64,000 bases of DNA from Candidatus Latescibacterota bacterium (GCA_965204375.1 OZ241986.1:160001-224000), one strand, 5' to 3'. Positions 40,819 through 60,170 are shown, counted from the first letter of the stretch. A program made the numbers and translations. Notes: generated by a model from the letters alone, not told the origin.

Positions 40819-41748
<930 letters not shown>

Positions 41749-41844
41749 GAAATAGTAGGAGAGAATAGAATTGTCATTGCGGCATGGTTTTAGCCGCCAC
41801 GCCGTAGGCACAACGCCAGTAATCCAGGAAGTGGTTCTTTAGTC

Positions 41845-41889
41845 AGCCCGTTCAATCTCCCCAATAGAAGGGTAGTTGGACGGGCTTTT
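41845..41889 (+). terminator. Intrinsic terminator after mdh, left edge of the RM locus
   Basis: AGCCCGTTCAA...TTGGACGGGCT followed by TTT. Confidence 0.65.
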
Positions 41890-41920
41890 ATCTTATGTAA
41901 AAAACTGAGAGGGCAATCAA

Positions 41921-44056
41921 ATGCAAGATAGCCAGGTTAGTCGCATTCCCAATTTTATCTGGGGCATTGCCGACGATGTGTTGCGCGATCTGTATGTGCG
42001 GGGCAAGTATCGCGATATTATTCTGCCAATGACGGTGATTCGGCGGCTGGACGCGGCTCTTGAACCGACCAAACAGACGGTTCTCGCTATGCGAGACAGG
42101 CTCGACGCTGATGGGGTTATCGAACAGGAAGCCGCGCTAAAGCAGGCTTCCGGGCACGCTTTTTACAATGCTTCGCCATTCACGTTGCGCGATCTTCGCG
42201 CCCGCGCCAGTCGGCAGCAACTTCGCGCTGATTTTGAGGCGTACCTGGATGGATTTTCGGCCAATGTGCAGGATATTTTGAAGAATTTCGAGTTTCGCAA
42301 TCAGATTCCGCGTTTGTCCGATGCCGATGCGCTCGGCGCGTTGATTGAGAAATTTCTGTCGCCAGATATCAATTTAAGTCCCTATCCGGTGGAGAACAGC
42401 GATGGTTCTGTGCGGTTTTCCGGTCTGGACAATCACGCGATGGGTACGATCTTTGAGGAATTGGTTCGGCGGTTTAATGAGGAGAATAACGAGGAGGCTG
42501 GCGAACACTGGACACCACGCGATGCGGTCAAGCTGATGGCGAATCTCATTTTTCTTCCGGTGGCTGACGAGATTGAGTCGAGTACCTATTTGCTCTACGA
42601 TGGTGCTTGCGGTACGGGTGGTATGCTGACTGTCGCAGAGGAGACGCTTCGGGAACTCGCCCAGGAGCGCGGTAAGCAGGTTTCCACGCATCTTTATGGA
42701 CAGGAGATCAATGCCGAGACCTATGCTATTTGCAAGGCGGACTTATTGCTGAAGGGCGAGGGGAGCGCGGCGGATAATATTGTCGGAGGTCCGGAGTATT
42801 CAACGCTTTCCAATGATGCTTTTCCATCCCACAGGTTTGATTTTATGCTCAGCAATCCACCCTATGGCAAGAGTTGGAAGAACGATCTGGCCCGGATGGG
42901 TGGCAAGAGCGGCTTATCTGATCCGCGATTTCTTATCGCTCATGACGGCGACGCGGAGTATTCCCTGCTCACGCGGTCCAGCGATGGGCAGATGCTGTTT
43001 CTCGCCAATCTGCTTTCCAAGATGAAGCGCGATACCAGTCTGGGCAGTCGCATTGCCGAAGTCCATAATGGGAGTTCCTTGTTCACGGGTGATGCGGGGC
43101 AGGGCGAGAGCAATATCCGCCGCTGGATTATTGAGAACGACTATCTGGAGGCGATTGTCGCGCTGCCGCTCAATATGTTCTATAACACGGGTATCGCCAC
43201 GTACATCTGGGTGCTGACCAATCGCAAGCCAGCGCATCGACGCGGCAAGGTGCAACTTATCGATGCGAGTGAGTGGTACAGTCCGTTGCGTAAGAATCTG
43301 GGGGCGAAGAACTGCGAGTTGTCCAGTGATGACATCCGCCGCATCTGCGACGCTTTTCTCGCGTTTGAGGAGACCGGGCAGTCGAAAATTTTTCCCAACA
43401 AGGCATTCGGCTACTATAAGGTGACGGTTGAACGACCGCTGAGGCTTGCTGTCAATCTGTCGCCTGAGCAACGCGCGCGATTCCGGGACGCTTGCCGCGA
43501 AGCGAAGGAAGAACCGCTCGCCGATGTGGTTGATGGGATGTTGGAGACTATCGGCAACGGTCCTCATCTTGATTTCAACTGTTTTATGGATGCGGTCGCT
43601 GCAGAGGCGTCTGAGCAGGGCGTCAAGCTGATCGCCAAGCGGAAGAAGCTGTTGCAAACGTCGCTGGCATTTCGGGATGAAGCCGCCGAACCGGTGATTA
43701 AGAGGGTTCACAAATTGGGCAATAGAGAGCCAGACCCGATTCGCGGTCTGGTAGAGGCGACTGTAAATGACCAGTGCGTTGTCGTTGAATATGAGCCAGA
43801 TAGCGAGTTGCGCGATACCGAACAGGTGCCTCTGCTTGAGGAGGGTGGTGTTGAGGGCTTTTTGAGCCGCGAGGTGCTGCCTTATGCCTCCGACGCATGG
43901 TACGTTTCGACGAGTGTCAAAATCGGCTATGAGATCAGCTTTACCCGTCATTTCTACAAGCCACAACCGATGCGGTCACGAGAAGAAATCCGCGCTGATA
44001 TCAGGGCGTTGGAGCGAGAGAGTGAAGGGGTGTTGGCGGAGATTATGGGGGAGTAG
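41921..44056 (+). CDS. hsdM: Type I restriction-modification methyltransferase subunit
   Basis: FIWGIADDVLR, GEHWTPR, YDGACGTGGML, GQEIN, SNPPYG, FYNTGIATY. Confidence 0.95.
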   Translation: MQDSQVSRIPNFIWGIADDVLRDLYVRGKYRDIILPMTVIRRLDAALEPTKQTVLAMRDRLDADGVIEQEAALKQASGHAFYNASPFTLRDLRARASRQQLRADFEAYLDGFSANVQDILKNFEFRNQIPRLSDADALGALIEKFLSPDINLSPYPVENSDGSVRFSGLDNHAMGTIFEELVRRFNEENNEEAGEHWTPRDAVKLMANLIFLPVADEIESSTYLLYDGACGTGGMLTVAEETLRELAQERGKQVSTHLYGQEINAETYAICKADLLLKGEGSAADNIVGGPEYSTLSNDAFPSHRFDFMLSNPPYGKSWKNDLARMGGKSGLSDPRFLIAHDGDAEYSLLTRSSDGQMLFLANLLSKMKRDTSLGSRIAEVHNGSSLFTGDAGQGESNIRRWIIENDYLEAIVALPLNMFYNTGIATYIWVLTNRKPAHRRGKVQLIDASEWYSPLRKNLGAKNCELSSDDIRRICDAFLAFEETGQSKIFPNKAFGYYKVTVERPLRLAVNLSPEQRARFRDACREAKEEPLADVVDGMLETIGNGPHLDFNCFMDAVAAEASEQGVKLIAKRKKLLQTSLAFRDEAAEPVIKRVHKLGNREPDPIRGLVEATVNDQCVVVEYEPDSELRDTEQVPLLEEGGVEGFLSREVLPYASDAWYVSTSVKIGYEISFTRHFYKPQPMRSREEIRADIRALERESEGVLAEIMGE

Positions 44057-44102
44057 CCTTTATCCCAGTGTGCCCCAGTGCTTAAAAAATGCAGGGGCAG
44101 GC

Positions 44103-44131
44103 TTGAATGTGCGGATAAAGTTGGCTATACT
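44103..44131 (+). promoter_or_regulatory. Putative sigma70 promoter, shared with 60238-60266
   Basis: TTGAAT-N17-TATACT; AAAGTTGGCTATACTAAAT is identical in both copies. Confidence 0.65.
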
Positions 44132-44148
44132 AAATGCAGGTGTGTAAA

Positions 44149-44190
44149 TTCCCACTTCTCACTTCCCACTTCCCACTTCTCACTTCTCAT
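44149..44190 (+). repeat. Heptamer tandem repeat (TTCYCAC)x6
   Basis: TTCCCAC TTCTCAC TTCCCAC TTCCCAC TTCTCAC TTCTCAT, ending in the ATG at 44189. Confidence 0.85.
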
Positions 44191-46090
44191 GTCAGACCTA
44201 CGATTTGACATCACGCCCTTTCTGGATCAAGACGAAGGCCAGCACTTTGATCGCAAGTCGTTGTACGAAGGCGAAGAGGGTGCCAAACGGCCACGGAGTC
44301 GCCGCGCTGTGCGGGATCAGGTTGCGGAATACATCGCTGCTTTCGCCAATGCCGAAGGTGGCGTGCTTATCCTGGGTATAGAGGATGACCGCACCATTAC
44401 GGGCTACCAGCTTCCGCAGGATGCTTTGAACAATATTCTGAAGACCCCGATCACGCGGTTGCAGCCCGCACAGCCCAATGGCTTTATTATGTATGTTGAA
44501 GGGCGCAAAGTGATTGTTTTTGATGTGCCGGCTTCAGATGTTCCCGTTCAAGTAATCGGGGATGGCTTTCCGCTGCGAATGGGTGATCAGACCGTGCAAT
44601 CCAGCGAGAGCCAAATCAATACGCTTAAGTTTGAAGGTATGGCGGAGAGTTGGGAGAGCCGACGGTCGTTGATGACTTTGGCTGATTTGGATGCGCGATT
44701 GTTAGAACGCGCACGACAGGGGGCGGGTTTATCCGCTTTGAGTGATGAAGAGTACTTACTCAAGCGCAAATTGGCTGACCGCCGGGGGCGAGGAATCGTG
44801 CTTAGAAATGCCGCGGCGTTGCTTTTTGCCCGTTACGGGCCGGACCATCCCAATGCCGGTGTCCGTCTGTTTCGCGTCATTGGCACTGAGCGCTATACCG
44901 GTATCGAGCACAATGTTGAAGAACGCCCGCGTTGCGAAGGTAACTTGCCTGCGGTTATATCGGAAATTCGCACGGTTATCAGCGGTCTGCTGCGGCGCCC
45001 GATGCGGCTCGTGGGGAGTCGCTTTCAGGAATCTGCCGAATATCCGGATTTCGCATGGCTGGAGGCGTTGCTCAATGCCATCGCGCACCGCGATTACAGG
45101 ATTGAAGGCACCTGCATAGAGGTCTGGCTATTTGATGACCGCATGGAAGTTGTCAGTCCCGGCGGTCTGGTCGGCAATTTGACCACAGAAGCGTTGCTCA
45201 CGCTCAAGCGCGTTCATCACAGCCGCAATCCTCGGATTATTCGGGTGCTTGTAGATCTCGGTCTCGCACGCGATCAGGGCGAGGGTATTCCGCGTATGTT
45301 CGCAGAAATGGAAGACGCTTTTTTGCCGAGGCCAGACATAGATGCGACCAGCCGCAATGTCATGGTCACGCTTCGAAATACGCTTACCTTAAATGCGATG
45401 GATCGAGAATTTATCTCGGCTCTCGGCGATCTTGAGCTTTCCCGCAATGAGTTTCGGACCTTGCTTTATACGTATCGCCACGGTCAGATAGACAATGCCA
45501 GGCTACGTGCTTTATCCGGTCTGGATACCTTAAATGCCAGTTATCTTTTGCGCGGCCTCCGCGACCGAGATTTGTTGATGCTTCATTCTCATGGCCCCAA
45601 CAGCTACTACACGCTGACTTCTGTTTTGACATCGCAAGTTGGGGTATATAGAGCAAAAGGTGAAAAACTCAGTGCGGATGGGGGGGATATCCGCGAAGGA
45701 CACGAAGGGACACGAAGAAGGGGTAAGCTCGATGCGGATGAGGGGGAGTTCAGCGCGGATGGGAGGGAGCTTGGCACGGATGTAGAGAAGTTTAGCACGG
45801 ATGGGGGGGAGTTCGACGCCGATGGGGGGGAGCTTCCCGATTATATCAGAGTGCGTATTGCAAAACTTGGAAAGCGGCCGCGTCGTGTGCGTGTGCGCCC
45901 CATCATCCATTTAATATGCGATCAAGGGAAATGGGTAACTTCTGCGGAACTTGCCCGGTTTCTCAATATAGGTCAAAGCAAACTAACGGCGGGTTATATT
46001 ACTCCGATGGTGCATAGCGGAGAACTTGAACCGCGCTTTCCAGGCAAGCCCAATCATCCTCACCAGGCTTACCGCGCCAGAGTGCCCTAA
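44189..46090 (+). CDS. Schlafen/AlbA_2 + HATPase-like (RecG C-terminal-like) + wHTH protein, copy 1
   Basis: EGQHFDRKS, AAFANAEGGVLILGIED, EALLNAIAHRDY, DDRMEVVSPGG, SRNP, GEGIPRM; C-terminal PNHPHQAYR HTH. Confidence 0.85.
   Translation: MSDLRFDITPFLDQDEGQHFDRKSLYEGEEGAKRPRSRRAVRDQVAEYIAAFANAEGGVLILGIEDDRTITGYQLPQDALNNILKTPITRLQPAQPNGFIMYVEGRKVIVFDVPASDVPVQVIGDGFPLRMGDQTVQSSESQINTLKFEGMAESWESRRSLMTLADLDARLLERARQGAGLSALSDEEYLLKRKLADRRGRGIVLRNAAALLFARYGPDHPNAGVRLFRVIGTERYTGIEHNVEERPRCEGNLPAVISEIRTVISGLLRRPMRLVGSRFQESAEYPDFAWLEALLNAIAHRDYRIEGTCIEVWLFDDRMEVVSPGGLVGNLTTEALLTLKRVHHSRNPRIIRVLVDLGLARDQGEGIPRMFAEMEDAFLPRPDIDATSRNVMVTLRNTLTLNAMDREFISALGDLELSRNEFRTLLYTYRHGQIDNARLRALSGLDTLNASYLLRGLRDRDLLMLHSHGPNSYYTLTSVLTSQVGVYRAKGEKLSADGGDIREGHEGTRRRGKLDADEGEFSADGRELGTDVEKFSTDGGEFDADGGELPDYIRVRIAKLGKRPRRVRVRPIIHLICDQGKWVTSAELARFLNIGQSKLTAGYITPMVHSGELEPRFPGKPNHPHQAYRARVP
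45728..45832 (+). repeat. Coding 21-bp tandem repeat (7 aa) x5
   Basis: LDADEGE-FSADGRE-LGTDVEK-FSTDGGE-FDADGGE; a further unit at 45668-45688. Confidence 0.8.
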
Positions 46091-46134
46091 CGCCTGCATA
46101 TTTGACGTCAGATGACTGATAGGGGAGAACAGCA

Positions 46135-46488
46135 ATGGCAATGAAATCTTTAGATGACCATATTGCGATTACCCCCGGTATATGCAGCGGAAAGCCGCGT
46201 ATTGCTGGCCGTCGCATTACCGTGGCGCATATTGCCATCTGGCATGAACGAATGGGCAAATGTGCAGATGAAATCGCCACGGAATACGATTTGACCTTGG
46301 CCGATGTGTATGCGGCATTGGCCTACTATTTCGATCACCGCGAAGAAATTGACCAATCGATTCAAGAGGGTGAAGAATTTGTGAAGGCTTTACGCCAGAA
46401 GACACCGTCTCGCCTGGGTTTTATGGCAGGGCAGATTGAAGTTCCCGACGACTTCGATAGCATGGGCGACTCTGAGGAAGATAACTAA
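46135..46488 (+). CDS. DUF433 antitoxin-like protein with chimeric C-terminal tail
   Basis: ITPGICSGKPRIAGRRITV, LTLADVYAALAYYFDHREEI; tail RLGFMAGQIEVPDDFDSMG. Confidence 0.85.
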   Translation: MAMKSLDDHIAITPGICSGKPRIAGRRITVAHIAIWHERMGKCADEIATEYDLTLADVYAALAYYFDHREEIDQSIQEGEEFVKALRQKTPSRLGFMAGQIEVPDDFDSMGDSEEDN

Positions 46489-46491
46489 GAC

Positions 46492-49400
46492 ATGGCTGAT
46501 AATGACAAAACTGTTCTCGATGGATGGAAGAAAACACGATCTGGAGCACGGGCTGGTCGGGGTTTTGATTATCAACATCGATTTTCAACTCTTATCCTTG
46601 TTCAGCAATGGGCCGGACTGTTACCTACAGGCAATCTTGTCCCAGAGGGGCTTGAAGATTGTGTTGTAGAGTTGGCGGATCGTGACATTTGGATCCAAAT
46701 CAAATCGAGAGAGCAGGGCACATTCAGCAAAGGCGAAGTGAAAACAATTTTTGAGCAAGCCCGACGGAAAGCCAGCCTTGTCAACAATCAAAAGCCTACA
46801 CAATTGGTTGCTGGTCTTGAGCAACCTTGTCCCGCTGTTACCGGGTACGAGATGGATGGTCTCTTTGATGGCAGAGCCGAGAAGGTTGTTGTTTGCACTG
46901 CACCGGAAGAGGAAATAGTTAATTTATTGTCTCAAAATCTAAATATAGCGGAGATTATCGCCGAAGGACTGATGAGCGACCTGTATAAACTCGTTGCTGA
47001 GAGTTCGGCGGCCAATGCCTCGCTTCCCTTTGAGAGAAGGCGGCGTATATCTACGACAGAGGTTGAATGCCGCATCCTTGAACGTCTTGAGGCTGAAGAT
47101 CCTTCCGCAATCAATCGTGCTTTCGATATAAGAGCTCTGGAGCCTGTTGACTTCGTTACTCCTGTCTCTGAGCCTGGTTTCTATCAGGGCGTTAAAGTTA
47201 AACCTGGACACATTGCCTCCGGGTTAGTTATAGAGCGTCCAGGAGAAACACAAGACGTTGTCCAGGCATTTAAGAAACGTCGGCATCTTCTTGTCACCGG
47301 TCCTTCAGGGGCAGGAAAATCTGCTCTCATTTGGCTGGTCGCACATTCGTTGACTGCTGAGTTCCGCTGGTATCAGATTTCTGCCCAAGCGAACGCGCAA
47401 GATGCTGACGCAATTATTCGTTTCGTGAAGTCACGCCGTCCCAAGAAAGTTTCTCCGATAGGATTGATATTTGACGATGTTGGAGAGTCCAGCAGCAATC
47501 TGTGGGATATTCTTACGAACCAACTCAGAAGTCTGCCAGATGTTTATATATTGGGATCAGTGCGTAATGAGGATATAGCTCTGATTACTAATCAATCTGA
47601 TACCGAATTTTTTGAGATCAGACTTGATAGTGAACTTGCACAGAGTATGTGGGAAGAACTGACCAACGAAGGCCAGACGAAATGGGCTTACTGGCGTGAA
47701 CCTTTCGAACAATCCGATGGACTGATGCTTGAATACGTTCACCTCTTGACGCAGGGCAAGCGGCTTGCCGCCGTGATCGATGAACAGATTCGTCAACGGG
47801 AAAGAGAAAGACGACACGCCGAACTCGCCATAATCAGAGGCACGGCTGTTCTATGTGCTTTCGGTGGCGAAGTTGAGGCTAAAAGGCTCTTCGAATTACT
47901 ACAATTGCCACCAGACCGCGCAGCACAGGCATTAAAGAGATTAATAGACGAACATCTTGTACGCGAAAGCCGTCCGGGTGTGCTCGGAGGCCTTCATGCT
48001 CTGCGATCGAAGGCACTTTGTGACGCTTCCCATGATGATGTCTCTTATCTACGCAGCGACTCGTTATGGCAGTCACTGACGGCTGCAACGAATGAGACAT
48101 TGCCAAGAATTATTCAGTCAGTTCTTAATGAGACACAGAATGAGGCCGAAGCTATGACGCTTCAGAATCTGGCGAAGGCACTTGCAGCAAGCGATGATAT
48201 TGAGGTATGGGCAGCTATTCTTACTGGATTGGGTATAGGTACAATGGAAAAATCTGTCGCTTCATTCATGGCAATGCTTGAAAAGCATGGAGTCCAACGT
48301 ACCCATTGGTTTTTGGCCTCAATGTTTTCGGATGCCGGCATCGATGTCCCTGAATTGTCAGGATTTGAAAACTTAAAGCCCATGCAAAACGCCGTAATAG
48401 CCTTCCGCGCGTTACCGAAACGCGATTTTCGAGCCGACTGTTTACGGATGTTGCCCCAAGGAACGCAAGTTCCGGTATGTACAGATATTCGGCAGCTTAA
48501 CCTATTGCTCTCCTCTCTGGTACCGATACCAGGAGGAGATTCCAGCCGGATTCCGTTCAAGACGGATTTCTCTGGTTATGGTGAGCAGGATATTCATGAT
48601 GTAGCCGCTCTCTTATCGACTGCCTACTTGATCGGGCCCGACGTGGCTAAAGATCTCGTGGCCGCCTTTGGCGGCGAGCAGACCTTGTTTAACTGGTTCA
48701 GTTCCCAGATTCCTTGGGTAACTGTACCTATAATCGAACCACAGGGAACTCATGGACGCACCGTCCGTGCTAACAGGTTTTTTGTAGCCGAGTCACATCA
48801 GACTGATGCTCATAAAACCCTCTGTGATATTTGTGAGACATTGATTGCCATATCGCCAATGTCGGATGCAGCTGCATCCGATGCCATAGGTCTGTCAGGG
48901 CAGCCTATAGAAATAAATGGACTTAGCGATTGGTCAAAAAATATATCCAGAGAGAACCTTCCTTCAAAGGCTCGGGTGGCCTGGAATGTTGCCTTTCGCC
49001 AAATCCTGCTCGCACGAGCAGCGGAGCACAGCCTAACGGATTACACACACGAGATGGCTGATCATGTGAGACACACAGAAAAAATTTTTCGTTTGTTTTC
49101 GGAGCAATGGATTAAAGGACGGAGAATATCGAATAAGGACAGGCTGGCTGCGGAGATCAATGAGATTGTGAATCATGTCGATGACTTGATCTATGCTAAG
49201 CCCAAAACATTAGCGGCCTCAATGACAAGTACCACTGGTGATACAGAAGAGGATGATAAGCTCGGTGCATTATTGACTAGCGTACTTTATAATCTTGTTC
49301 CACGAATGTGTAAAATACCACCTGAGCCCGACGCGAAAGCGGCCGCGGCATTCACCAGCGGCCTCGCTGCACAGGCACGAGAGCATGGAATATCCGAAAT

Positions 49401-50334
49401 CTGGCGTACAACGCCATCACCGCCGTTAGATGAATTAGCCGTACTCGCAGAGCGTCTTGATGGTGTTGCTTGCATCTTGCACGAAATAGCACACGACGAT
49501 ACAGCCAGAGCAATAAAAAAGCTCTGTCAGATAGCCAGAAAGGGGAGGGCGGGAAAAGCTATTCAGGCCGTGGCTGGTCGTTGTCGCTTGCTGGCTAAAC
49601 AACGCTTCCATCGGAGGTTGCGGGCTTTAGAAAACGCGCTTAAAGCACAGGGTTTGACTGCCAGATGCAGGACTCGTCCTGTCAATGACGCCGATAGTAT
49701 TGATTGGCCTGCCGTAGAAGTTGCTATTCTTATCAAGATCACAGATTCTGAAACTGATTGGAATTATCTCGAAGACAGCCTTTCAATTGGAGAAAAGCAA
49801 CTTGCACAAGATTGGCAATTCTGCGTTGTGCCTGTCATAAATAATCAAGTCATTGCAGACTTAGCATTCATTTCTTCATCGCAGGGGCCATTACTTGACG
49901 TGGAATTTGCTCACAAATGGAAAGCTCATATTAACTTGCCATTTCTCTCCTCTGAAGTTTCAAACGCGTTTGATATAGCTGTATCAGCCTGTACGCAGGT
50001 CTCAGCCATCATTAGCTATCGTGATCTGGAAAAACTCCATCCTACGGAAGAAGAAGCTCTCTTGAAGGCCATAGACGACTTCGAGTGCAATCGGAAAACT
50101 GTTGATGCTTTTCAACAAAAGACGGGACAGGAGCTATTTGATGAAGCACTGGTTTATCTCGACGAAATATGGAATCAGATTGTTAGTGAAATTGAGTCCA
50201 TGAAAACAGGTCAGATGGTTGATAACCCATTGTGCCACATCATGGCGGATATGGAAAACGAAAAGGTTATTGAACTGGGTGTTGCAAGGATGCTATTGCG
50301 ACAAGCTGAATGCTACACTGTCGCCGCAGAGTGA
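46492..50334 (+). CDS. Putative Cap4-like endonuclease - STAND-type NTPase fusion (candidate anti-phage protein)
   Basis: GARAGRGFDYQ...EGLED...IQIKS nuclease motif; Walker A GPSGAGKS, Walker B LIFDD, SVR, GLMLEY, wHTH with LHAL; long helical C-terminus. Confidence 0.7.
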   Translation: MADNDKTVLDGWKKTRSGARAGRGFDYQHRFSTLILVQQWAGLLPTGNLVPEGLEDCVVELADRDIWIQIKSREQGTFSKGEVKTIFEQARRKASLVNNQKPTQLVAGLEQPCPAVTGYEMDGLFDGRAEKVVVCTAPEEEIVNLLSQNLNIAEIIAEGLMSDLYKLVAESSAANASLPFERRRRISTTEVECRILERLEAEDPSAINRAFDIRALEPVDFVTPVSEPGFYQGVKVKPGHIASGLVIERPGETQDVVQAFKKRRHLLVTGPSGAGKSALIWLVAHSLTAEFRWYQISAQANAQDADAIIRFVKSRRPKKVSPIGLIFDDVGESSSNLWDILTNQLRSLPDVYILGSVRNEDIALITNQSDTEFFEIRLDSELAQSMWEELTNEGQTKWAYWREPFEQSDGLMLEYVHLLTQGKRLAAVIDEQIRQRERERRHAELAIIRGTAVLCAFGGEVEAKRLFELLQLPPDRAAQALKRLIDEHLVRESRPGVLGGLHALRSKALCDASHDDVSYLRSDSLWQSLTAATNETLPRIIQSVLNETQNEAEAMTLQNLAKALAASDDIEVWAAILTGLGIGTMEKSVASFMAMLEKHGVQRTHWFLASMFSDAGIDVPELSGFENLKPMQNAVIAFRALPKRDFRADCLRMLPQGTQVPVCTDIRQLNLLLSSLVPIPGGDSSRIPFKTDFSGYGEQDIHDVAALLSTAYLIGPDVAKDLVAAFGGEQTLFNWFSSQIPWVTVPIIEPQGTHGRTVRANRFFVAESHQTDAHKTLCDICETLIAISPMSDAAASDAIGLSGQPIEINGLSDWSKNISRENLPSKARVAWNVAFRQILLARAAEHSLTDYTHEMADHVRHTEKIFRLFSEQWIKGRRISNKDRLAAEINEIVNHVDDLIYAKPKTLAASMTSTTGDTEEDDKLGALLTSVLYNLVPRMCKIPPEPDAKAAAAFTSGLAAQAREHGISEIWRTTPSPPLDELAVLAERLDGVACILHEIAHDDTARAIKKLCQIARKGRAGKAIQAVAGRCRLLAKQRFHRRLRALENALKAQGLTARCRTRPVNDADSIDWPAVEVAILIKITDSETDWNYLEDSLSIGEKQLAQDWQFCVVPVINNQVIADLAFISSSQGPLLDVEFAHKWKAHINLPFLSSEVSNAFDIAVSACTQVSAIISYRDLEKLHPTEEEALLKAIDDFECNRKTVDAFQQKTGQELFDEALVYLDEIWNQIVSEIESMKTGQMVDNPLCHIMADMENEKVIELGVARMLLRQAECYTVAAE

Positions 50335-50418
50335 ATCTTATGAGAAATAGTTCTTGTTCATGTAGACCTGTAAAGCAAGATAGGATGGTTGTGTATTGAC
50401 TTGGCTGGGAGAATCATC

Positions 50419-51744
50419 ATGATCAATGAACTCCAACCCTACCTCTCCTACAAATCTTCCGAAGTCGAGTGGATTGGTGATGTACCGGCACATTGGGATG
50501 TGCAACGGCTTAAGTATCTATTGCGGGAGAGAGATATTCGATCTGCCGACGGGAGCGAGGAGTTGCTTAGCGTGTCACAATACACCGGTGTCACGCAGCG
50601 TAAGCGAGTAGATAGTGGAGATGCCCCTGACACGCGAGCAGAATCATTGATCGGTTATAAGTGTGTCGAACTCCAAGATCTTGTAGTGAATATCATGCTC
50701 GCTTGGAATGGTAGCATGGGCGTTTCACAATTCCATGGTATTGCGAGTCCTGCTTACTGTGTCTATCGATTTTTGGCTGGTGTAAATCCATGGTTCTATC
50801 ACTATCTACTTCGTTCTCCGATTTACAAGGCATATATCAAATCGGCATCCACCGGTGTAGTGGAGAGTAGGCTTCGTTTGTACACTGATGATCTCTATCG
50901 ACTTTATGCTATTGTTCCACCCCTCTCCGAACAAATCGCCATCGTCCGCTATCTCAATCAGGCTGACGAGCGCATCCGCCGCTACATCAGCAGCAGGGAG
51001 CGGCTCATTGAACTGTTGGAGGAATATCGGCAGGCGGTCATCCACCACGCAGTCACGCGCGGCCTTGATCCCGATGTGCGTCTCAAGCCCTCTGGCGTCG
51101 AGCAGCTGGGCGATATACCAGCGCATTGGGAGATAAGGCGGCTTAAGACACTTTGCAGCATGAAAAGTGGAGATGGCATTACTGCAATGTCGATTGAGCC
51201 TACGGGTGAATACCCCGTCTATGGCGGCAACGGGCTGAGAGGCTACACATCGAATTACACTCACGATGGCAATTATGTGTTGATTGGCAGACAAGGTGCG
51301 CTATGTGGGAATGTTCATATCGCTCGTGGTCAATTCTGGGCTTCGGAACACGCTGTAGTTGCTTCCCTATCGGCTGGTTATGTTCTTGAATGGTTTGCAG
51401 CTATCCTGAATGTGATGGATCTGAATCAATATTCACTTGCCGCTGCCCAACCTGGACTGGCCGTTGAACGAGTGCTGAATCTAAGTTTACCTGTGCCACC
51501 ACCACAAGAGCAAGCACACATCGCACGCTATATAGAACGTGAAACCGCTGACATTGACGTCGCTATTGACCGTGCTCGGCGAGAAATTGAGTTGCTGGGT
51601 GAATACCGCACGCGGTTGATTGCTGATGTGGTTACGGGCAAAGTAGATGTGCGGGATGCGGCTACGAGGTTGCCCGGTGAGGCGGAGACGCTAATTGACG
51701 CTGAACAGGAAAATCGAGAAAGTACCAGATATGTCATTGACTAA
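50419..51744 (+). CDS. hsdS: Type I restriction-modification specificity subunit
   Basis: Two TRDs with conserved repeats GDVPAHWDVQRLK / GDIPAHWEIRRLK, PPLSEQ / PPPQEQ, AVTRGL, DVVTGKVDVR. Confidence 0.93.
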   Translation: MINELQPYLSYKSSEVEWIGDVPAHWDVQRLKYLLRERDIRSADGSEELLSVSQYTGVTQRKRVDSGDAPDTRAESLIGYKCVELQDLVVNIMLAWNGSMGVSQFHGIASPAYCVYRFLAGVNPWFYHYLLRSPIYKAYIKSASTGVVESRLRLYTDDLYRLYAIVPPLSEQIAIVRYLNQADERIRRYISSRERLIELLEEYRQAVIHHAVTRGLDPDVRLKPSGVEQLGDIPAHWEIRRLKTLCSMKSGDGITAMSIEPTGEYPVYGGNGLRGYTSNYTHDGNYVLIGRQGALCGNVHIARGQFWASEHAVVASLSAGYVLEWFAAILNVMDLNQYSLAAAQPGLAVERVLNLSLPVPPPQEQAHIARYIERETADIDVAIDRARREIELLGEYRTRLIADVVTGKVDVRDAATRLPGEAETLIDAEQENRESTRYVID

Positions 51745-52204
51745 CACTGAATTTGCCTCCATCATGCAGGACAAATCGAAACGCATTGAAGGTAATATCG
51801 CTTGGGTCGGGGATGAAGATCATTCCCCTGCTTGTATATTTCGAGCCGATGTCGAGTCAGAGGCAGGTTGGCCTCTCTTCATTCAAGGCAGATACAATCC
51901 GCTGGCGCGTACCCTGACCTATGCACTCATACTGAAAACAGCAGGGCGGATATACGGACTTGATCTGAGCAAGGACCACCATAATCCTCAGTGCGATCAA
52001 GTCGGTGAAAAGCATAAGCATACATGGTCTGAAAATTATCGGGATAAGGAAGCCTATGTGCCAAATGACATTACCGCGCAGGTTTCGGATCCCGTGGCGG
52101 TTTGGAAACAGTTCTGTAAGGAAGCAGACATTGAACACGATGGGGAACTTAACAAGCCCCCACCCTTGCAAGTGGAGATGTTTGATGAACACGAATATCT
52201 GTAA
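51731..52204 (+). CDS. Small hypothetical protein (DUF6978-like)
   Basis: LDL...HHNP...HKHTW...AY motif; start overlaps the hsdS end and stop overlaps the next gene. Confidence 0.55.
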   Translation: MSLTNTEFASIMQDKSKRIEGNIAWVGDEDHSPACIFRADVESEAGWPLFIQGRYNPLARTLTYALILKTAGRIYGLDLSKDHHNPQCDQVGEKHKHTWSENYRDKEAYVPNDITAQVSDPVAVWKQFCKEADIEHDGELNKPPPLQVEMFDEHEYL

Positions 52205-52967
52205 AGAAATACAGAGACAGATTGGGGAACAGTTCACCTGTACGGAGCTTGGTGATTATCTTCGGATTCGCACCCCGTATTTGTATCCCGATGGAGACAA
52301 TATCGATCTATTCTGTAAATCCAAAGGTGATACGGTCACAGTAACCGATCTTGGGGAGACCACGGGCTGGCTTCGGATGCAGTCATTATCGCTGCGCCGA
52401 TCCCCGAAGCAGAATCGGCTGATCGCGGATGTCCTTACAACTCATGGCGTTGAACTATACCGAGGTATGCTTTTGGCCCGATGTCGTCCTGACGAACAGT
52501 TGGCTGCGGTGGTCTCGCGTGTGGCTCAAGCGTCATTACGGGTATCTGATTTGTGGTTCACATTGCGGATCCGAGCGGTCGAATCCATCATGGATGAAGT
52601 CGCCGACTATCTGACCGAATGCGACCTGCCGTTCGTGCGTTCCGAGAAACTGTCCGGGCGGTCGGGACGTGGCTGGACCGTAGATTTTCACATTCGTACC
52701 CACGAGCGTAGCTCTTTGGTTTATGTGTTGAGTACGGCGAATCGTTCCGCTGCGAACAGAGTGACGGAACACATAGTGGCTGCTTGGCACGATTTGCATC
52801 ATTTTACGGCTGGGCCCGAGGCGTTGCATTTCGTCTCTCTTTTCGATGATACCTTAGATGTTTGGACATCCGAGAACTTCCGATTGATGGAACAGCTATC
52901 CACGGTGTCGTACTGGTCGAGACCCGATGAGTTCAAGAACGTTTTGGTACAACAAAACGCAGCATAG
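52185..52967 (+). CDS. DUF1828/DUF1829 domain protein
   Basis: IRTPYLYPDGDNIDLF, VTDLGET, LSGRSGRGWTVDF, AWHD. Confidence 0.7.
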   Translation: MNTNICKEIQRQIGEQFTCTELGDYLRIRTPYLYPDGDNIDLFCKSKGDTVTVTDLGETTGWLRMQSLSLRRSPKQNRLIADVLTTHGVELYRGMLLARCRPDEQLAAVVSRVAQASLRVSDLWFTLRIRAVESIMDEVADYLTECDLPFVRSEKLSGRSGRGWTVDFHIRTHERSSLVYVLSTANRSAANRVTEHIVAAWHDLHHFTAGPEALHFVSLFDDTLDVWTSENFRLMEQLSTVSYWSRPDEFKNVLVQQNAA

Positions 52968-53017
52968 ACAAACTTTTTTGGAGAATAAAAAGAAAACGCT
53001 TCTGCGGAGGTTTTGAC

Positions 53018-54496
53018 ATGAACGGTCAACGTTCCCCCGAGTACCTGGAAGGTCTTCTCCGAGAGCTATGTGCTTTGCCGCACGAGACCGAGTGGGTAGA
53101 ATTTAAGGAAGACAACACTGACCCACAGGAGATCGGCGAGTATCTTTCTGCCCTTGCCAACTCGGCGGCACTTGTGGGCAAAGCCGCGGCTTATCTGGTG
53201 TGGGGTGTGCGCGATCATGATCACGCAGTCGTGGGGAGCAACTTTGATCCCTGGTCCGCCAAAAAAGGAAGTGAGGAACTGGAAAATTGGCTGCTGCGTC
53301 TGCTCGAACCTAAGATTGATTTTCATTTTTTCCCCTTGAGTACCGAGAAGGGGTCAGTCATCCTGACGGAAATTAACCGTGCTACGCGGCATCCGGTGCG
53401 CTTTGCCGGTCAGGAATACATCCGCGTGGGCAGCTACAAAAAAAAGCTCAAAGACCATCCCGAAAAAGAGCGGGCACTGTGGCGCATTTTTGATCAGACG
53501 CCATTCGAGGAAGGCATTGCGCTTGAACGGGCAACGGGCGACGATGTTGTTCGTCTGCTGGACTGTCAGGCCTATTTCGACCTTCTGAAACTGCCACAGC
53601 CGAAGACACAACGGAGCCTTCTTGAGGTGCTGGCGAGCGACGAATTGATCCGGCCTTCGGTAGCTGGTGGATGGGACATTACTAATCTCGGAGCGATACT
53701 CTTTGCCAAAGATCTCGACAATTTTCGGACCTTACGCCGAAAGGCCGTGCGTGTCATTCATTACAAGGGCAGTGGCCGGTTGGAGGCCTTGAAGGAACGC
53801 GAAGTGCCCAAGGGCTATGCCTGTGGATTTGAAGGGCTGAACGAATACATCCACGCGTTATTACCGGAGAACGAGATTATTGAACAGGCTCTGCGCCGAA
53901 CAGTAGCGACGTTTCCAATCGTAGCCGTGCGCGAACTGGTCGCCAACGCACTCATCCACCAGGATTTTTCGATTACTGGCGCGGGGCCAATGGTAGAAAT
54001 ATTCGAAGGCCGAATCGAGATTACCAATCCCGGCGCACCCCTCGTCGATATTGACCGATTGGTGGATGCAGCACCGAAATCGCGCAACGATAAACTGGCA
54101 TCGCTCATGCGGCGCTTCAACTTGTGCGAGGAGCGCGGCAGCGGCATCGACAAAGTGGTGTTCCAAATTGAGTTGTTCCAGCTTCCCGCGCCGTTGTTCG
54201 AGACGCCAGGAGATGCCACTCGCGTCACGCTTTTTGCTCCTAAGGCCCTGAGGGATCTGGACCGGCAGGAACGAATTCGTGCCTGTTATTTTCACGCCTG
54301 CCTGAATTATGTGATGGGCAAACCTGTCACCAACACCTCAATCCGCACGCGATTTGGCATCCCAGACCACAACGCTTCGACTGCCTCACGGCTATTGAAA
54401 GAAGCTGTCGAAGCGGGTGTCATCGCCGTTGAGATGGCCAATAGCGGCACCAGAAATCGTCGATACGTGCCCTTCTGGGCGGCCCAGGCGGATTGA
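53018..54496 (+). CDS. Schlafen/AlbA_2 + HATPase-like + wHTH protein, copy 2
   Basis: ETEWVEFKE, IGEYLSALANS, YLVWGV, RELVANALIHQDF, IEITNPG, SRN, CEERGSGIDK, TNTSIRTRFGI. Confidence 0.87.
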   Translation: MNGQRSPEYLEGLLRELCALPHETEWVEFKEDNTDPQEIGEYLSALANSAALVGKAAAYLVWGVRDHDHAVVGSNFDPWSAKKGSEELENWLLRLLEPKIDFHFFPLSTEKGSVILTEINRATRHPVRFAGQEYIRVGSYKKKLKDHPEKERALWRIFDQTPFEEGIALERATGDDVVRLLDCQAYFDLLKLPQPKTQRSLLEVLASDELIRPSVAGGWDITNLGAILFAKDLDNFRTLRRKAVRVIHYKGSGRLEALKEREVPKGYACGFEGLNEYIHALLPENEIIEQALRRTVATFPIVAVRELVANALIHQDFSITGAGPMVEIFEGRIEITNPGAPLVDIDRLVDAAPKSRNDKLASLMRRFNLCEERGSGIDKVVFQIELFQLPAPLFETPGDATRVTLFAPKALRDLDRQERIRACYFHACLNYVMGKPVTNTSIRTRFGIPDHNASTASRLLKEAVEAGVIAVEMANSGTRNRRYVPFWAAQAD

Positions 54497-54503
54497 CGTT
54501 CAT

Positions 54504-54789
54504 TTGTTTGACGGTTGTTTGACGGTTGTTTGACGGTTGCTTGACGGTTGCTTGATAGAAAACCCGAAAAATGACTCGGCGGGACAGATCTGTTTTTGTA
54601 ACTTACTGTTATCAAATCACTTACTGTTTTGCAATTTGTTTGATGGTTGTTTGATGGTTGTTTGATGGTTGTTTGATGGTTGTTTGATAAAAAACTCGAA
54701 AAATGGCTCGGTGGAGCAGGTGTGATTTTGTAACTCATTGTTATCAAATCACTTACCGTTTTGTAATTTGTTTGATGGTTGTTTGATGG
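54504..54789 (+). repeat. Phased array of 11-bp repeats TTGYTTGAYGG in three blocks with 132-bp period
   Basis: Blocks start at 54504, 54636 and 54768 (4+partial, 4+partial and 2 units), separated by two homologous 79-bp spacers. Confidence 0.92.
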
Positions 54790-54891
54790 AAACCAAATGA
54801 TCACCGACACCACCGAGTGCGGTTTGGAAGATTGTATCTGCGATCTAAGGGTGTAGAGAAGCCTGATTTTGACGAAAGTGAGCACGTTAAC

Positions 54892-56580: not shown

Positions 56581-56738
56581 AAATTAATAAAATGCGCTTG
56601 AGAGAGGGTAGTTTATAAAAGGAATATATATAAATATTTGTTTTACATATATTTGCCTTTTATTGATTTTTAATCAGATCATAAATTTTATTAAAGGATT
56701 TATTAAAGGATTTAGCAAAGCCGCGTCGTTTTTCAACT

Positions 56739-56928: not shown

Positions 56929-56990
56929 AAGCCCGTTTGGAACGATATATTTTTGTATCCGAAAAGCAATCCGAACCGAGAGAGTAAGGT

Positions 56991-59900
56991 ATGAAGAGTC
57001 GGGATATTAAACTAACACAAGCTCAGAGAGAAGAATTGGATGCGCTTGCGGCGCTGCCTGATGAGCAGATAGATACCTCTGATATTCCCGAGATTCCCGA
57101 GGGGTCTAATTCTGTGCGCGGGCTGTTTCAGAAGTCCGCCAGTGAGCGGAGTAAGGCGATGGATGAGTTGAGAGGCAGACGTCCGTCGGTTACGGATATT
57201 TCTGAACGCGGTTTGGAAGATCGCATTTGCGAGGTGCTGGCTGGTAGAGCGGATAAATCGAGTGCGGGTGATGTAGGGGAACGTCCGGCTGTTTATGGTG
57301 TGGGCTGGCGTTATGGGGATCGCGAGGATTACGACCGCGAGTATTGTGTGGATCTGGCGCAGTTGACTGCTTTTTTGATGGCGACGCAGCCGAAGGTTGC
57401 CGATGCGCTGTCTCTGGGGAGCGATAATCCAACGCGGCGCAGGTTTCTCACCCGGTTGAAGGGCGAGGTTGGCAAACGCGGGATTGTGGATGTGCTTCGC
57501 AATGGCGTTAAGCACTTGTCGCATGATGTTGTGCTTTTTTACGGTGCGCCATCGCCGGGCAACCAACGGGCGGTGAAGCTTTACGAACAGAATCGCTTTT
57601 CGGTTACGCGCCAGTTGTCGTATAGCAATGCCAATAAGCGGCTCGCGCTTGATCTCGCGCTGTTTATCAATGGGTTGCCGGTGGCGACTTTTGAGTTGAA
57701 GAATAGTCTCACGAAGCAGACGGTGGCAGATGCGGTTGAGCAGTACAAACGCGATCGGGATCCGAGGGAGGATCTTTTTCGCATTGGTCGTTGTTTGGCT
57801 CATTTTGCTGTGGATGAACACGAGGTGATGTTTTGTACGCATCTCAGGGGGAAGTCGTCCTGGTTCTTGCCTTTTAATAGGGGGGTGGATGACGGGGCGG
57901 GTAATCCGGTCAATCCCAATGGGCTTAAGACCGATTATTTGTGGCAGGAGGTTCTGACGCGGCAGAGTTTAACCGATATTATTGAGAATTATGCCCTGCT
58001 GGTGGAATCTGCCGATACAAAGACCGGGCGCAAGTCGCAGTCGCAAATCTGGCCGCGCTATCACCAGTTGGATGTGGTGCGGAAGTTGCTGGCTGATGCT
58101 GCGGAGAAGGGTGTGGGACAACGCTATCTCGTTCAGCATTCGGCGGGTAGTGGGAAGTCCAATTCTATTGCATGGTTGGCGCACCGCCTCATTGGGCTGG
58201 AAAAGGATGGTGAGACGGTTTTTGATTCTATTATTGTTGTGACGGATCGGATTATTCTGGACCGGCAGATCAATGATACGATTCGGCAGTTTGCGCAGGT
58301 GGGGGCGACTGTCGGGCATGCTGAAAGATCTGGCGATTTGCGTCGTTTTATCAGCGCTGAGAAGAAGATCATTATTTCTACTGTGCAGAAGTTTCCGTTT
58401 ATCCTGGATGAGATTGGCACAGAACATCGGGGGAATCGCTTTGCGATTATCATTGATGAAGCGCATTCCAGTCAGGGTGGGCGTACGTCTTCGGCGATGG
58501 CGCAGGCACTGGGCGACCATGAGGATGGAGATGATGACGATACGTTTGAAGATAAAATTAACCGGATTATTGAGCAGAAGCGGCTGTTGACCAATGCGAG
58601 CTATTTTGCTTTTACTGCGACGCCAAAGAATAAGACGCTGGAGTTGTTTGGCACGCCATCATCGCAGTCCGATGGTACGACAAAGCATCTGCCTTTCCAT
58701 AGCTATGCGATGAAACAGGCGATTGAGGAGGGGTTTATTCTGGATGTGCTGGGCAATTATACGCCGGTGAAGAGTTATTATCATCTTGCCAAGACAATAG
58801 CAGACGATCCGGAGTTTGACACAATAAAGGCGAAGAAGAAGCTCGTCCGCTATGTGGAGACACATAGCCATGCTATCTGGCTCAAAGCCGAGATTATGGT
58901 TGATCATTTCCACGAGCAGGTGCTGGCACCGCGCAAAATTGGTGGGCAGGCGCGGGCGATGGTTGTAACGGGTGGTATTCAGATGGCGATTACCTACTAT
59001 CACGCCATCCGCAATTATTTGAGGGAGCGCAATAGTCCGCATAAAGCTATTGTCGCTTTTTCTGGTGAGACGGATTACGGCGGTGAGAGGGTGAGTGAAG
59101 CGTCGTTGAATGGTTTTCCGTCATCGCAGATTGCCAGCAAGATTCAGGAAGATCCCTATCGGTTTCTGGTCTGTGCGGATAAGTTTCAGACGGGTTATGA
59201 TGAGCCTTTGCTACATGTGATGTATGTGGATAAGGTGCTTTCTGGTATTAAGGCTGTGCAGACCCTTTCGCGCCTCAATCGCGCCCATCCAGAAAAGCGC
59301 GATACGTTTGTGCTGGATTTCTATAATGATGCCGATGGGATAAGAGATGCGTTTGCCGATTACTACCGCACGACTATTTTGGCGGATGAAACCGATCCCA
59401 ATAAGTTGCACGATCTCAAGGCTGATCTGGATGGTCGTCAGGTCTATTCAGATGTGCAAGTCCACGAGTTGGTGGCGTCGTATTTGAAGGGCGATACTCG
59501 CGGGACTTTTGATCCGATTCTGGATGAGTGTGTGGCGGTCTATCGAAGTGAACTGGATGAGGACGGGCAGGTTGAATTTAAGGGCAATGCCAAGGCTTTT
59601 GTTCGCGCATACAACTTCTTGTCTCAGGTGCTTCCCTACGCGAATGTGGAGTGGGAGAAGCTTTCCATTTTCCTAAACTTTCTCGTTCCCAAGCTGCCGA
59701 CGCCGGTTACTGAAGATCTGTCGCTGGGTATTGAGGGGGCTATTGATATGGATAGCTATCGCGCCGAGAAGCAGGCGACGATGCAAATTATGCTGTCCGA
59801 TGAAGATACCGAGATTGAGCCGGTGCCTACAGGCGGTGGCGGCTTTAAGCCAGAGCCGGAAATGGACCGGCTTTCGAATATTCTCAGGGCGTTTAACGAT

Positions 59901-60170
59901 CTTTTTGGGGATATTCCGTGGACCAATGAGGACCGCATACGCAAGATGATTACCGAGGATGTTCCGAGGATGGTCGATGCTGATAGTGCCTATCGCAATG
60001 CACGGGAACATTCAGATGAGCAGAATACGCGCATTGAACACGATAAGGCGTTGGAGAAGGCGATTATGACGCTGCTTTCGGACGATACCGAACTTTACAA
60101 GCAGTACTCCCAGAATGAGGCATTTAAGCGTTGGCTGGAGAATAGTGTGTTTGAGCTGACCAATCGCTAA
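56991..60170 (+). CDS. hsdR: Type I restriction endonuclease subunit R with an N-terminal extension
   Basis: DLALFINGLPVATFELKN, QYK, QHSAGSGKS, IIIDEAHSSQ, FTATPK, KFQTGYDEP, VQTLSRLNR. Confidence 0.95.
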   Translation: MKSRDIKLTQAQREELDALAALPDEQIDTSDIPEIPEGSNSVRGLFQKSASERSKAMDELRGRRPSVTDISERGLEDRICEVLAGRADKSSAGDVGERPAVYGVGWRYGDREDYDREYCVDLAQLTAFLMATQPKVADALSLGSDNPTRRRFLTRLKGEVGKRGIVDVLRNGVKHLSHDVVLFYGAPSPGNQRAVKLYEQNRFSVTRQLSYSNANKRLALDLALFINGLPVATFELKNSLTKQTVADAVEQYKRDRDPREDLFRIGRCLAHFAVDEHEVMFCTHLRGKSSWFLPFNRGVDDGAGNPVNPNGLKTDYLWQEVLTRQSLTDIIENYALLVESADTKTGRKSQSQIWPRYHQLDVVRKLLADAAEKGVGQRYLVQHSAGSGKSNSIAWLAHRLIGLEKDGETVFDSIIVVTDRIILDRQINDTIRQFAQVGATVGHAERSGDLRRFISAEKKIIISTVQKFPFILDEIGTEHRGNRFAIIIDEAHSSQGGRTSSAMAQALGDHEDGDDDDTFEDKINRIIEQKRLLTNASYFAFTATPKNKTLELFGTPSSQSDGTTKHLPFHSYAMKQAIEEGFILDVLGNYTPVKSYYHLAKTIADDPEFDTIKAKKKLVRYVETHSHAIWLKAEIMVDHFHEQVLAPRKIGGQARAMVVTGGIQMAITYYHAIRNYLRERNSPHKAIVAFSGETDYGGERVSEASLNGFPSSQIASKIQEDPYRFLVCADKFQTGYDEPLLHVMYVDKVLSGIKAVQTLSRLNRAHPEKRDTFVLDFYNDADGIRDAFADYYRTTILADETDPNKLHDLKADLDGRQVYSDVQVHELVASYLKGDTRGTFDPILDECVAVYRSELDEDGQVEFKGNAKAFVRAYNFLSQVLPYANVEWEKLSIFLNFLVPKLPTPVTEDLSLGIEGAIDMDSYRAEKQATMQIMLSDEDTEIEPVPTGGGGFKPEPEMDRLSNILRAFNDLFGDIPWTNEDRIRKMITEDVPRMVDADSAYRNAREHSDEQNTRIEHDKALEKAIMTLLSDDTELYKQYSQNEAFKRWLENSVFELTNR

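Follow-up and report, generated by a model that had tools for sequence, protein, structure and literature searches.

A window of 64,000 nucleotides (nt) from a Candidatus Latescibacterota bacterium (GCA_965204375.1 OZ241986.1:160001-224000), by which the whole stretch of DNA analysed is meant, contains a type I restriction-modification (R-M) operon. One gene within this operon encodes a protein of 1280 amino acids (aa) that joins an N-terminal Cap4-type nuclease domain, a central STAND NTPase module, and a large C-terminal sensor, and it is called here the Cap4-STAND protein. The first-pass annotation, made from the sequence alone, had placed a 1280-aa open reading frame (ORF) with an effector-STAND-sensor layout between hsdM and hsdS. 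The ORF is present there with a stop-free translation (Table 1), and all three parts of the layout were found in it. The gene is single-copy in its own genome. The protein is probably a single-gene, Avs-like (bacterial NLR-like) antiviral pattern-recognition receptor, in which oligomerisation would activate DNA cleavage by analogy with characterised Avs proteins.

All motifs that the first-pass annotation had named are present in the translation, and their residues are conserved across relatives. Conservation was read from two alignments, with 59 and 120 relatives, in which identity falls to about 30%. P51, E52, D56, Q69, K71, and S72 of the nuclease domain are invariant or at least 90% conserved, and the same applies to the whole P-loop (G270-S277), D328, R358, L411, L413, E414, H488, and H502. 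G275 and K276 are invariant among the 120 relatives and D328 among the 59; H488 is invariant, and H502 is at least 90% conserved. Because of this conservation, the listed motifs are not chance strings.

The structure was predicted with AlphaFold2 (AF2) as two overlapping parts, residues 1-530 and 521-1280, each from an alignment of 59 rows. The model of residues 1-530 has a predicted local distance difference test score (pLDDT) of 89.9. In VIA-align comparisons, residues 16-206 resemble HerA-DUF4297 9c1m_G (Z 16.3, root-mean-square deviation (rmsd) 3.1, 169 residues aligned), LmuA 9nxx_B (Z 15.0), CBASS Cap4 6wam_B (Z 13.8), and Hachiman HamA 8zue_A (Z 13.2). A profile of 34 N-terminal domains (230 residues) matches LmuA 9ux7_C among PDB sequences with E 1.4e-6, and the alignment pairs the GF.YQ, PE..ED, and IQ.K motifs, the LmuA side of which reads PE..ED...IQVK. 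In the AF2 model, D56 lies at the start of strand 57-60 and Q69-x-K71 at the end of strand 65-71, a modelled placement that corresponds to the usual site of PD...(D/E/Q)xK residues. The gathering cut-off of Pfam Cap4_nuclease PF14130 (26.2 bits) is passed by the relatives P0157 (29.5 bits) and P0199 (29.3 bits), and 6 of 34 N-terminal domains of the family match this model at E <= 0.01. Since the Cap4-STAND protein has the Cap4 fold and motifs and misses the PF14130 cut-off, its N-terminal domain is a divergent member of the superfamily and not a Pfam-level one. A Cap4-type PD-(D/E)xK nuclease had been named at this end of the protein in the first-pass annotation, and it is supported by the Cap4-type fold (Z 13-16), the LmuA profile match, and a conserved catalytic signature.

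The predicted STAND NTPase with a winged helix in the middle of the protein agrees with its nearest structures. By VIA-align, residues 208-530 match SAMD9 9zjz (Z 16.8, 289 aligned, rmsd 4.1), EfAvs5 9jap_A (Z 14.7), Apaf-1 3sfz (Z 14.1), and NLRC4 4kxf_K (Z 13.7), and the best Foldseek match of model 1-530 is Avs3 8dgc_A (E 1.1e-9). In a structural alignment of model 220-530 with Apaf-1 chain 105-462, the position of LHAL corresponds to the winged-helix end of Apaf-1, and H502 would be the ADP-contacting histidine. The Pfam family nSTAND_NTPase5 (PF25199) was matched below its cut-off in 17 of the 28 relatives scanned. A literature search for nSTAND5, PF25199, and 'novel STAND NTPase 5' returned no relevant paper, and the accessible part of Kaur et al. 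2021 (PMC8195603) mentions only nSTAND1 and nSTAND2.

The sensor follows the winged helix with about 760 residues, which exceeds the 400-aa sensor criterion of Lee et al. 2026, whose census, in the accessible text, sets sensor size at 400 aa or more (PMC13581612). The AF2 model of residues 521-1280 has a pLDDT of 91.2 and a predicted template modelling score of 0.85, and it consists, in order, of a helical lobe, an alpha/beta insert at about 746-822, a second helical lobe, a second alpha/beta insert at about 1055-1150, and a C-terminal helical bundle. A C-terminus of about 750 helical residues had been described in the first-pass annotation; it is mostly helical in the model, and the two small alpha/beta inserts mean that it is not purely so. 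The further description of a sensor without a recognisable repeat family is in line with the searches, and no significant solved relative was found by Foldseek against the PDB or by VIA-align. Searched as one 760-residue model, the sensor gave a best E of 0.045 against the PDB by Foldseek, to generic armadillo/karyopherin solenoids, and a best E of 0.019 against BFVD viral predicted structures. Its best VIA-align score against 48,161 chains was Z 10.5, which covers only the last four-helix bundle and falls within the tool's stated noise range for helical folds. Against the PDB chains of Avs3, Avs4, Avs5, and SAMD9 (8dgc, 8dgf, 9jap, and 9nc9 are in the library), nothing was found at E <= 0.001. 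The Avs3, Avs4, and Avs5 chains are also missing from the wide VIA-align list, although absence from either list of matches does not exclude a family. An ESM Atlas feature search with residues 530-1280 gave no usable match.

The sensor diverges faster than the remainder of the protein: a given set of relatives is 81, 57, 40, and 35% identical to the query over residues 1-530 but 66, 45, 25, and 19% identical over residues 521-1280. Mean identity by domain is 0.55 for the helical domain, 0.52 for the winged helix, 0.44 for the nucleotide-binding domain, 0.36 for the nuclease, and 0.25-0.36 for the parts of the sensor. The best-conserved stretch of the sensor is 770-844, around the first alpha/beta insert, and R759, Q770, H774, S815, N817, R820, and N832 are invariant among 26 close relatives. 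In the wider family, conservation in the sensor is limited to W, P, and G residues and a small number of charged ones.

These features bear on what the sensor might recognise. With the same switch and effector, it could respond to a nucleic-acid structure, a modified nucleotide, or a small molecule instead of a protein. The modelled sensor has two alpha/beta inserts and no TPR or other repeat array, the stretch 770-844 holds invariant polar residues among the close relatives, full-length conservation across phyla is high, and the last bundle resembles the periplasmic ligand-binding four-helix bundles of TorS, Tar, and PcaY (Z 8.9-10.5). However, for helical bundles the stated noise of VIA-align includes Z values of about 10, the residues kept in the wider family fit a scaffold better than a pocket, and every Avs family with an identified trigger senses a phage protein according to the accessible text of Lee et al. 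2026 (PMC13581612). A non-protein ligand is therefore improbable, and a receptor for a phage protein is preferred.

The Cap4-STAND protein belongs to a large family. A word-indexed search returned 385 homologues, the best 120 of which are 52-96% identical to the query and mostly about 1258-1334 aa long, with five shorter ones of 854-1238 aa. Few of these carry a name, and the names are all 'hypothetical' or 'uncharacterized' except one JGI (Joint Genome Institute) 'EcfA2' label. NCBI members include proteins of Thioalkalivibrio paradoxus and Salinisphaera aquimarina, and Agrobacterium also has a homologue. An exhaustive HMMER search with residues 230-1280 found 1224 representative clusters at E <= 1e-3, 826 at E <= 1e-10, and 350 at E <= 1e-30, most of which share the length and layout of the query. 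The phyla include Latescibacterota, Chloroflexota (Caldilineaceae), Acidobacteriota, Pseudomonadota, and others. The distribution is patchy; besides the genome of origin, 2 of 40 related genomes carry a homologue, one of them only as a weak partial match. The first-pass annotation would have yielded to a full-length match with an already named system; PADLOC-DB v2, Pfam, and NCBIfam hold none, and NCBIfam gave nothing meaningful. Against PDB sequences, phmmer with the whole protein and a 26-sequence profile returned only P-loop noise and a weak LmuA match.

Effector swapping occurs within this family. In the 28 distant members scanned, P0210 carries a SIR2_2 N-terminus and P0183 a Metallophos (calcineurin-like phosphoesterase) N-terminus, and both keep the NTPase and the sensor. 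P0228 (1425 aa) adds a C-terminal SEC-C motif. Among P0190 (1101 aa), P0244 (1092 aa), and P0228, some have just 45-75 residues before the NTPase, and these may be effector-less forms or have mis-called starts. Two of the 41 related loci carry the homologue split into two ORFs (L016:7956-11822, 775 and 498 aa; L036:7956-11418, 492 and 712 aa), which may reflect frameshifts, pseudogenes, or assembly errors.

Table 1. Features of the Cap4-STAND gene, of the operon around it, and of related loci. Positions without a locus prefix are counted from the first letter of the window; residues are those of the Cap4-STAND protein.
Feature	Position	Strand	Residues	Basis or remark
Cap4-nuclease/STAND NTPase/sensor gene (P0001)	46492..50334	+		Single uninterrupted ORF, ATG start, 1280 aa
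Cap4/DUF4297-type PD-(D/E)xK nuclease domain	46537..47109	+	16-206	VIA-align and profile
STAND NTPase module (nucleotide-binding domain, helical domain, winged helix)	47176..48036	+	229-515	
Sensor	48052..50331	+	521-1280	AF2 model
GFDYQ motif			24-28	
EGLED motif			52-56	
QIK motif			69-71	
Predicted catalytic core E52, D56, Q69-I-K71	46645..46704	+		Conservation, model strands, LmuA motif alignment
Walker A GPSGAGKS	47299..47322	+	270-277	
Walker B LIFDD	47464..47478	+	325-329	
GLML motif			410-413	
LHAL, MHD-like histidine motif at winged-helix end	47992..48003	+	501-504	
hsdM, type I R-M methyltransferase	41921..44056	+		Pfam N6_Mtase, HsdM_N; PADLOC MTase_I, E 2.4e-247
AlbA_2 (Schlafen-like)/HATPase_c_4 gene, cargo of the slot	44078..46090	+		Pfam
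DUF433 gene	46135..46488	+		Pfam DUF433, E 3.4e-19
hsdS, specificity subunit	50389..51744	+		Pfam Methylase_S; PADLOC Specificity_I, E 5.6e-98
DUF1828 gene	52005..52967	+		PADLOC candidate PDC-M24B, full length, E 1.4e-109
Second AlbA_2/HATPase_c_4 gene	53018-54496	+		Pfam
Third AlbA_2/HATPase_c_4 gene	54817-56580	+		Pfam
hsdR, restriction subunit	56991..60170	+		Pfam HSDR_N, SWI2_SNF2, ResIII; PADLOC REase_I, E 3.2e-40
Sister DUF433 copy	L056:4634-4939			
Sister DUF433 copy	L056:5354-5698			
Sister DUF433 copy	L058:3322-3660			
U49-like ORF	L006:8508-9425			
U49-like ORF	L013:11883-12800			
U49-like ORF	L014:11856-12773			
U49-like ORF	L018:10335-10778			
U49-like ORF	L032:2711-3370			

The neighbourhoods of relatives were scanned with Pfam over up to three ORFs on each side at 41 loci from species-representative genomes. 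By manual reading, a clear defence or toxin-antitoxin family lies no more than three ORFs from the homologue at 23 of the 41 loci (a raw count), and six more loci have weaker or mobile-element markers. The defence neighbours comprise CAP12-TIR, SEFIR/TIR, SIR2, R-M of types I, II, III, and ISP, Mrr, GmrSD, AbiE, OLD/UvrD (Gabija-like), KAP, CBASS with HORMA or E1/E2/JAB, HerA, NACHT, KwaB (Kiwa), NERD, HipA, HigB, and ParE. For a random gene, the chance of lying within 5 kb of a DefenseFinder match is given as 0.0153 in the accessible text of Lee et al. (PMC13581612). The homologues stand alone in defence islands, and a single-gene arrangement, as the first-pass annotation had assumed, is consistent with the lack of a conserved partner gene across the 41 loci. 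No flanking family recurs in them apart from a 306-aa U49-like ORF, which lies 3-4 nt after the homologue in 5 of the 41 loci, with a remnant in L010. This ORF matches Peptidase_U49 (Lit-like) weakly (E about 2e-5) and is not found in the window. Its position next to the homologue suggests that one subclade may be a two-gene system.

The homologues also adjoin integrases, recombinases, and transposases, and ten plasmid records carry them, seven of which are conjugative. The seven plasmid copies with at least 80% query coverage are annotated in RefSeq as 'hypothetical proteins'. This mobility could point to a STAND-regulated nuclease with another conflict or maintenance role, for example in the addiction of plasmids or islands, in competition among mobile elements, or in a two-gene module under the control of DUF433. 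The DUF433 gene directly upstream in this genus, near-identical copies of which precede PIN-like and TIR genes of a sister genome in the manner of an antitoxin or regulator, speaks for the same idea. However, DUF433 is absent from 40 of the 41 related loci, an effector-STAND-sensor layout in which SIR2 or phosphoesterase effectors can replace the nuclease is the signature of defence STANDs, and plasmid carriage is equally typical of defence systems. Such a role is very improbable, and the antiviral receptor remains the favoured reading of the Cap4-STAND gene.

In the window, the gene had been described as inserted between hsdM and hsdS. The position holds, but it is not the only insert there; the AlbA_2/HATPase_c_4 and DUF433 genes also lie in this interval, and the DUF433 stop codon is 3 nt before the start codon of the STAND gene. 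The G+C content of the STAND gene is 0.47-0.49 versus 0.53-0.55 on the upstream, hsdM side. Scans of 41500-60500 for promoters (24 versus 19.5±3.9) and terminators (16 versus 17.3±3.8) were at chance level. The three AlbA_2/HATPase_c_4 genes are paralogues in one operon, the first of which (44078-46090) matches the N-terminal 15-438 of the PADLOC pAgo-associated model PDLC02394 with E 1.6e-26. An ORF at 51695-52204 overlaps the DUF1828 gene, and the expected partner of the PADLOC candidate PDC-M24B matched by that gene is PDC-M24A.

The slot was compared with eight regions fetched from same-genus genomes (L055-L062); G010 among them may be the same genome as L001, and the two were counted once. 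An orthologous hsdM is kept in all eight regions (80-97% identical), and hsdR is 81-96% identical in seven of the eight and was not found within the 20 kb fetched from G011. The content between hsdM and hsdS varies. G002 and G007 carry a C5 methylase (Dcm) and a HATPase_c_3 protein, G012 carries three ThsB-type TIR genes and Nmad2, G014 carries DUF433 and an AAA_15 ATPase, G001 and G011 carry a ThiF-like gene, and G010 carries DUF433 and the STAND gene. In G006, an IS110 transposase is followed by DUF433 with a DUF5615/PIN-like gene and then by DUF433 with a DUF1883-TIR gene. Since this content differs among sister genomes, the STAND gene is one alternative among the several cargos carried at a cassette site inside a type I R-M operon. 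The gap between hsdS and hsdR is also variable and holds OLD-family, DarT/DarG-like (DarT + Macro), and M78 + DUF4411 genes. Defence genes embedded in an R-M operon are reported for TgvAB of Vibrio cholerae (PMC11411939, accessible part), and such embedding is also documented in the accessible part of the 'guilt-by-embedding' survey of Payne et al. (10.1101/2024.01.29.577857).

The position inside the operon suggests another explanation, in which the protein guards the type I R-M system, its sensor detecting anti-restriction proteins (Ocr/ArdA-like) or failure of Hsd and firing the nuclease as a second line of defence. The gene lies on the same strand as hsdM, hsdS, and hsdR with very short gaps, a 92% identical homologue occupies the same position in the operon of L001, and L024 has an ArdA anti-restriction gene downstream of the homologue. 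However, among the 41 related loci, L001 itself is the only one with DUF433, hsdM, hsdS, and hsdR next to the homologue, and homologues elsewhere adjoin many other systems or none. Unrelated defence genes fill the same slot in sister genomes, so that the position looks like a general cargo site. A guard of the R-M system is thus a most improbable explanation, and an independent receptor for infecting phage is preferred. The ArdA gene of L024 (L024:8996-9508, E 9.9e-47) starts about 270 nt downstream of the homologue, and an OLD/UvrD (Gabija-like) pair lies upstream on the same contig.

DUF433 appears to travel with different effectors. Copies that are 80-95% identical to the one in the window lie directly upstream of the DUF5615/PIN-like, DUF1883-TIR, AAA_15, and Cap4-STAND genes. 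DUF433 may act as a portable antitoxin or regulator, or it may anchor the recombination of cassettes. The idea that DUF433 and the STAND gene form a conserved two-gene system was considered and rejected, as DUF433 is found in 1 of the 41 loci. Public contigs were compared over 41900-52000. In the DNA run X5, labelled sponge metagenome, a contig of depth 57.7 has 2676 other letters in place of the stretch from 46476 to 50917, and a second contig of depth 11.5 carries the STAND gene, showing the same exchange within one community. The replacement joint at 46476 is 12 nt before the DUF433 stop codon, and contigs of run X1 are interrupted within DUF433, at 46311-46397. In the RNA-library run X20 (same sample, sponge metagenome), two small contigs cover 46597-46947 and 47978-48232 of the STAND gene and show 2 and 10 differences from it. 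Since RNA libraries may also contain DNA, transcription of the gene or of a close variant in situ is only weakly indicated.

Among the closest known systems, Avs3 (SeAvs3, PDB 8dgc) is built of a Cap4 nuclease, a STAND module, and a TPR sensor of the phage large terminase. It has the same part order and the same effector type as the Cap4-STAND protein, and VIA-align superposes model 13-523 on chain 2-601, covering nuclease and NTPase, with Z 12.9 and 405 aligned residues. The rmsd of 16.8 in this alignment arises because the domain orientation differs. Avs3 is about 2000 aa long versus 1280 aa here, and aligned identity is 10-11%. PADLOC, which we take to contain AVAST/Avs models, returned none of them among the matches of the Cap4-STAND protein.

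Avs7 (SeAvs7) is described in the accessible text of Lee et al. as a Cap4-STAND protein with a TPR sensor that is shared with Dsr1 and senses the major capsid protein with EF-Tu (PMC13581612). It resembles the protein in question in its Cap4 domain of about 225 residues, as given in the same text, followed by the NTPase residues in the same order. SeAvs7 K292, D358, R395, and H545 (PMC13581612, accessible part) correspond to K276, D328, R358, and H502 here, namely the Walker A lysine, the Walker B aspartate, a sensor-1-like arginine, and the winged-helix histidine. A SIR2-bearing variant exists in both groups. The PADLOC Dsr1 models do not match the Cap4-STAND protein at E <= 0.01, and they match P0210, the SIR2 variant, only in its SIR2 part (residues 13-227); by sequence, therefore, the sensor is not that of Avs7/Dsr1. 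SeAvs7 structures are not among the structure-search matches, so that Avs7 is set apart by sequence only.

The Avs5/SAMD9 group (EfAvs5 9jap, AVAST5 9nc9, human SAMD9 9zjr/9zjz) gives the best structural matches to the NTPase and winged helix but carries SIR2 and AlbA_2 effectors. Membership of Avs6 or Avs9 was rejected, since other effectors stand at their N-termini; PNP is reported for Avs6 and AlbA_2 for Avs9 in the accessible part of PMC12680541. Cap4 of CBASS, LmuA of Lamassu, HerA-DUF4297, and HamA of Hachiman share the nuclease fold and motif set, but here the nuclease is fused to a STAND switch and has no SAVED/CARF domain. No CD-NTase, LmuB/LmuC, HerA, or HamB partner adjoins the gene in the window, and none is recurrent in the 41 loci. 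An effector of Lamassu or CBASS was rejected because these partner genes are missing. The CBASS genes near L031 are a separate system, as they lie on the opposite strand.

The proposed mechanism follows the characterised relatives. According to the accessible text of Lee et al. (PMC13581612), Avs3 and Avs7 rest as autoinhibited monomers with bound ADP, the autoinhibition is lifted once the sensor binds a phage protein, and ATP-dependent tetramerisation via the NTPase then brings the Cap4 domains together as an active double-stranded DNA (dsDNA) nuclease. In newly tested Avs families, mutation or deletion of the effector abolished cell death (PMC13581612, accessible part). The Cap4 domain of LmuA is activated by tetramerisation, and its motif lysine (K57 in V. 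cholerae) is essential (10.1101/2025.04.02.646746, accessible part). Because the parts and their order match Avs3 and Avs7, the same event sequence is proposed for the Cap4-STAND protein. At rest, the protein would be an autoinhibited, ADP-bound monomer. The 760-residue sensor would bind a conserved molecule of the invading phage, most likely a protein, which would open the STAND NTPase and lead to ATP binding and oligomerisation. Oligomerisation would gather the N-terminal Cap4-type PD-(D/E)xK domains into an active dsDNA endonuclease, and degradation of DNA would abort the infection. In this sequence, K276 and D328 would form the switch, H502 (or H488) would contact ADP, and D56, Q69, and K71 would be the active site. 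By analogy with Avs3, Avs4, Avs7, and LmuA, we infer autoinhibition, ligand-induced oligomerisation, nuclease activation, and abortive infection.

Several observations weigh against this receptor reading. Full-length identity of 52-64% across phyla is unusually high for a sensor in an arms race, and tblastn found no homologue in 50,697 phage records. In the profile searches, nSTAND_NTPase5 barely passed at residues 229-362 (34.7 bits versus a cut-off of 34), PF14130 was unmatched at E <= 0.01 by the whole protein and by its N-terminal domain, and the PADLOC LmuA models match at only E about 1e-3. The defence-context count has no background rate, and 12 of the 41 loci have no defence marker within three ORFs, three of them beside ftsA/ftsZ and two on short contigs. 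In the model, the sensor lacks a TPR array, unlike most Avs sensors, and since no relative of it was found among solved or viral predicted structures, nothing points to its ligand. A broader joint reading is that a new non-repeat sensor module, built of two helical lobes, two alpha/beta inserts, and a terminal bundle, detects an infection signal outside the known Avs families, either a protein beyond the tailed-phage core set or a non-protein ligand at the conserved 750-845, while DUF433 in this genus is a portable regulator or antitoxin exchanged with effectors at one R-M-embedded site. This combination as a whole is unlikely.

The accessible text of Lee et al. 2026 (PMC13581612) counts 589 STAND clades, 198 of them defence-associated, and 684 sensor clusters, from seeds that partly bear Cap4. 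It assigns triggers to Avs7, Avs8, and Avs10-21 and reports defence for Avs22-24; for Avs22-24 and bNACHT20, that text identifies no trigger. As the present family is large and has NCBI members, it is probably contained, uncharacterised, in this census. None of the 41 loci comes from the non-enterobacterial source species in the accessible part of the Figure 5 legend of that work (PMC13581612), which weakly suggests that the representatives tested there belong to other families. The Cap4-STAND protein is most likely an uncharacterised member of a well-established kind, of which dozens of families are known.

The STAND receptors of bacteria correspond to the NLRs of animals and plants, and so far every new type of STAND sensor has uncovered another mode of virus recognition. 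The Cap4-STAND protein is a tractable candidate for trigger screens and structural work, because it is compact at 1280 aa, its models are confident, its sensor is unlike anything solved, and its family is large. The locus is also a clear example of a type I R-M operon that serves as a cassette site for exchangeable defence genes.

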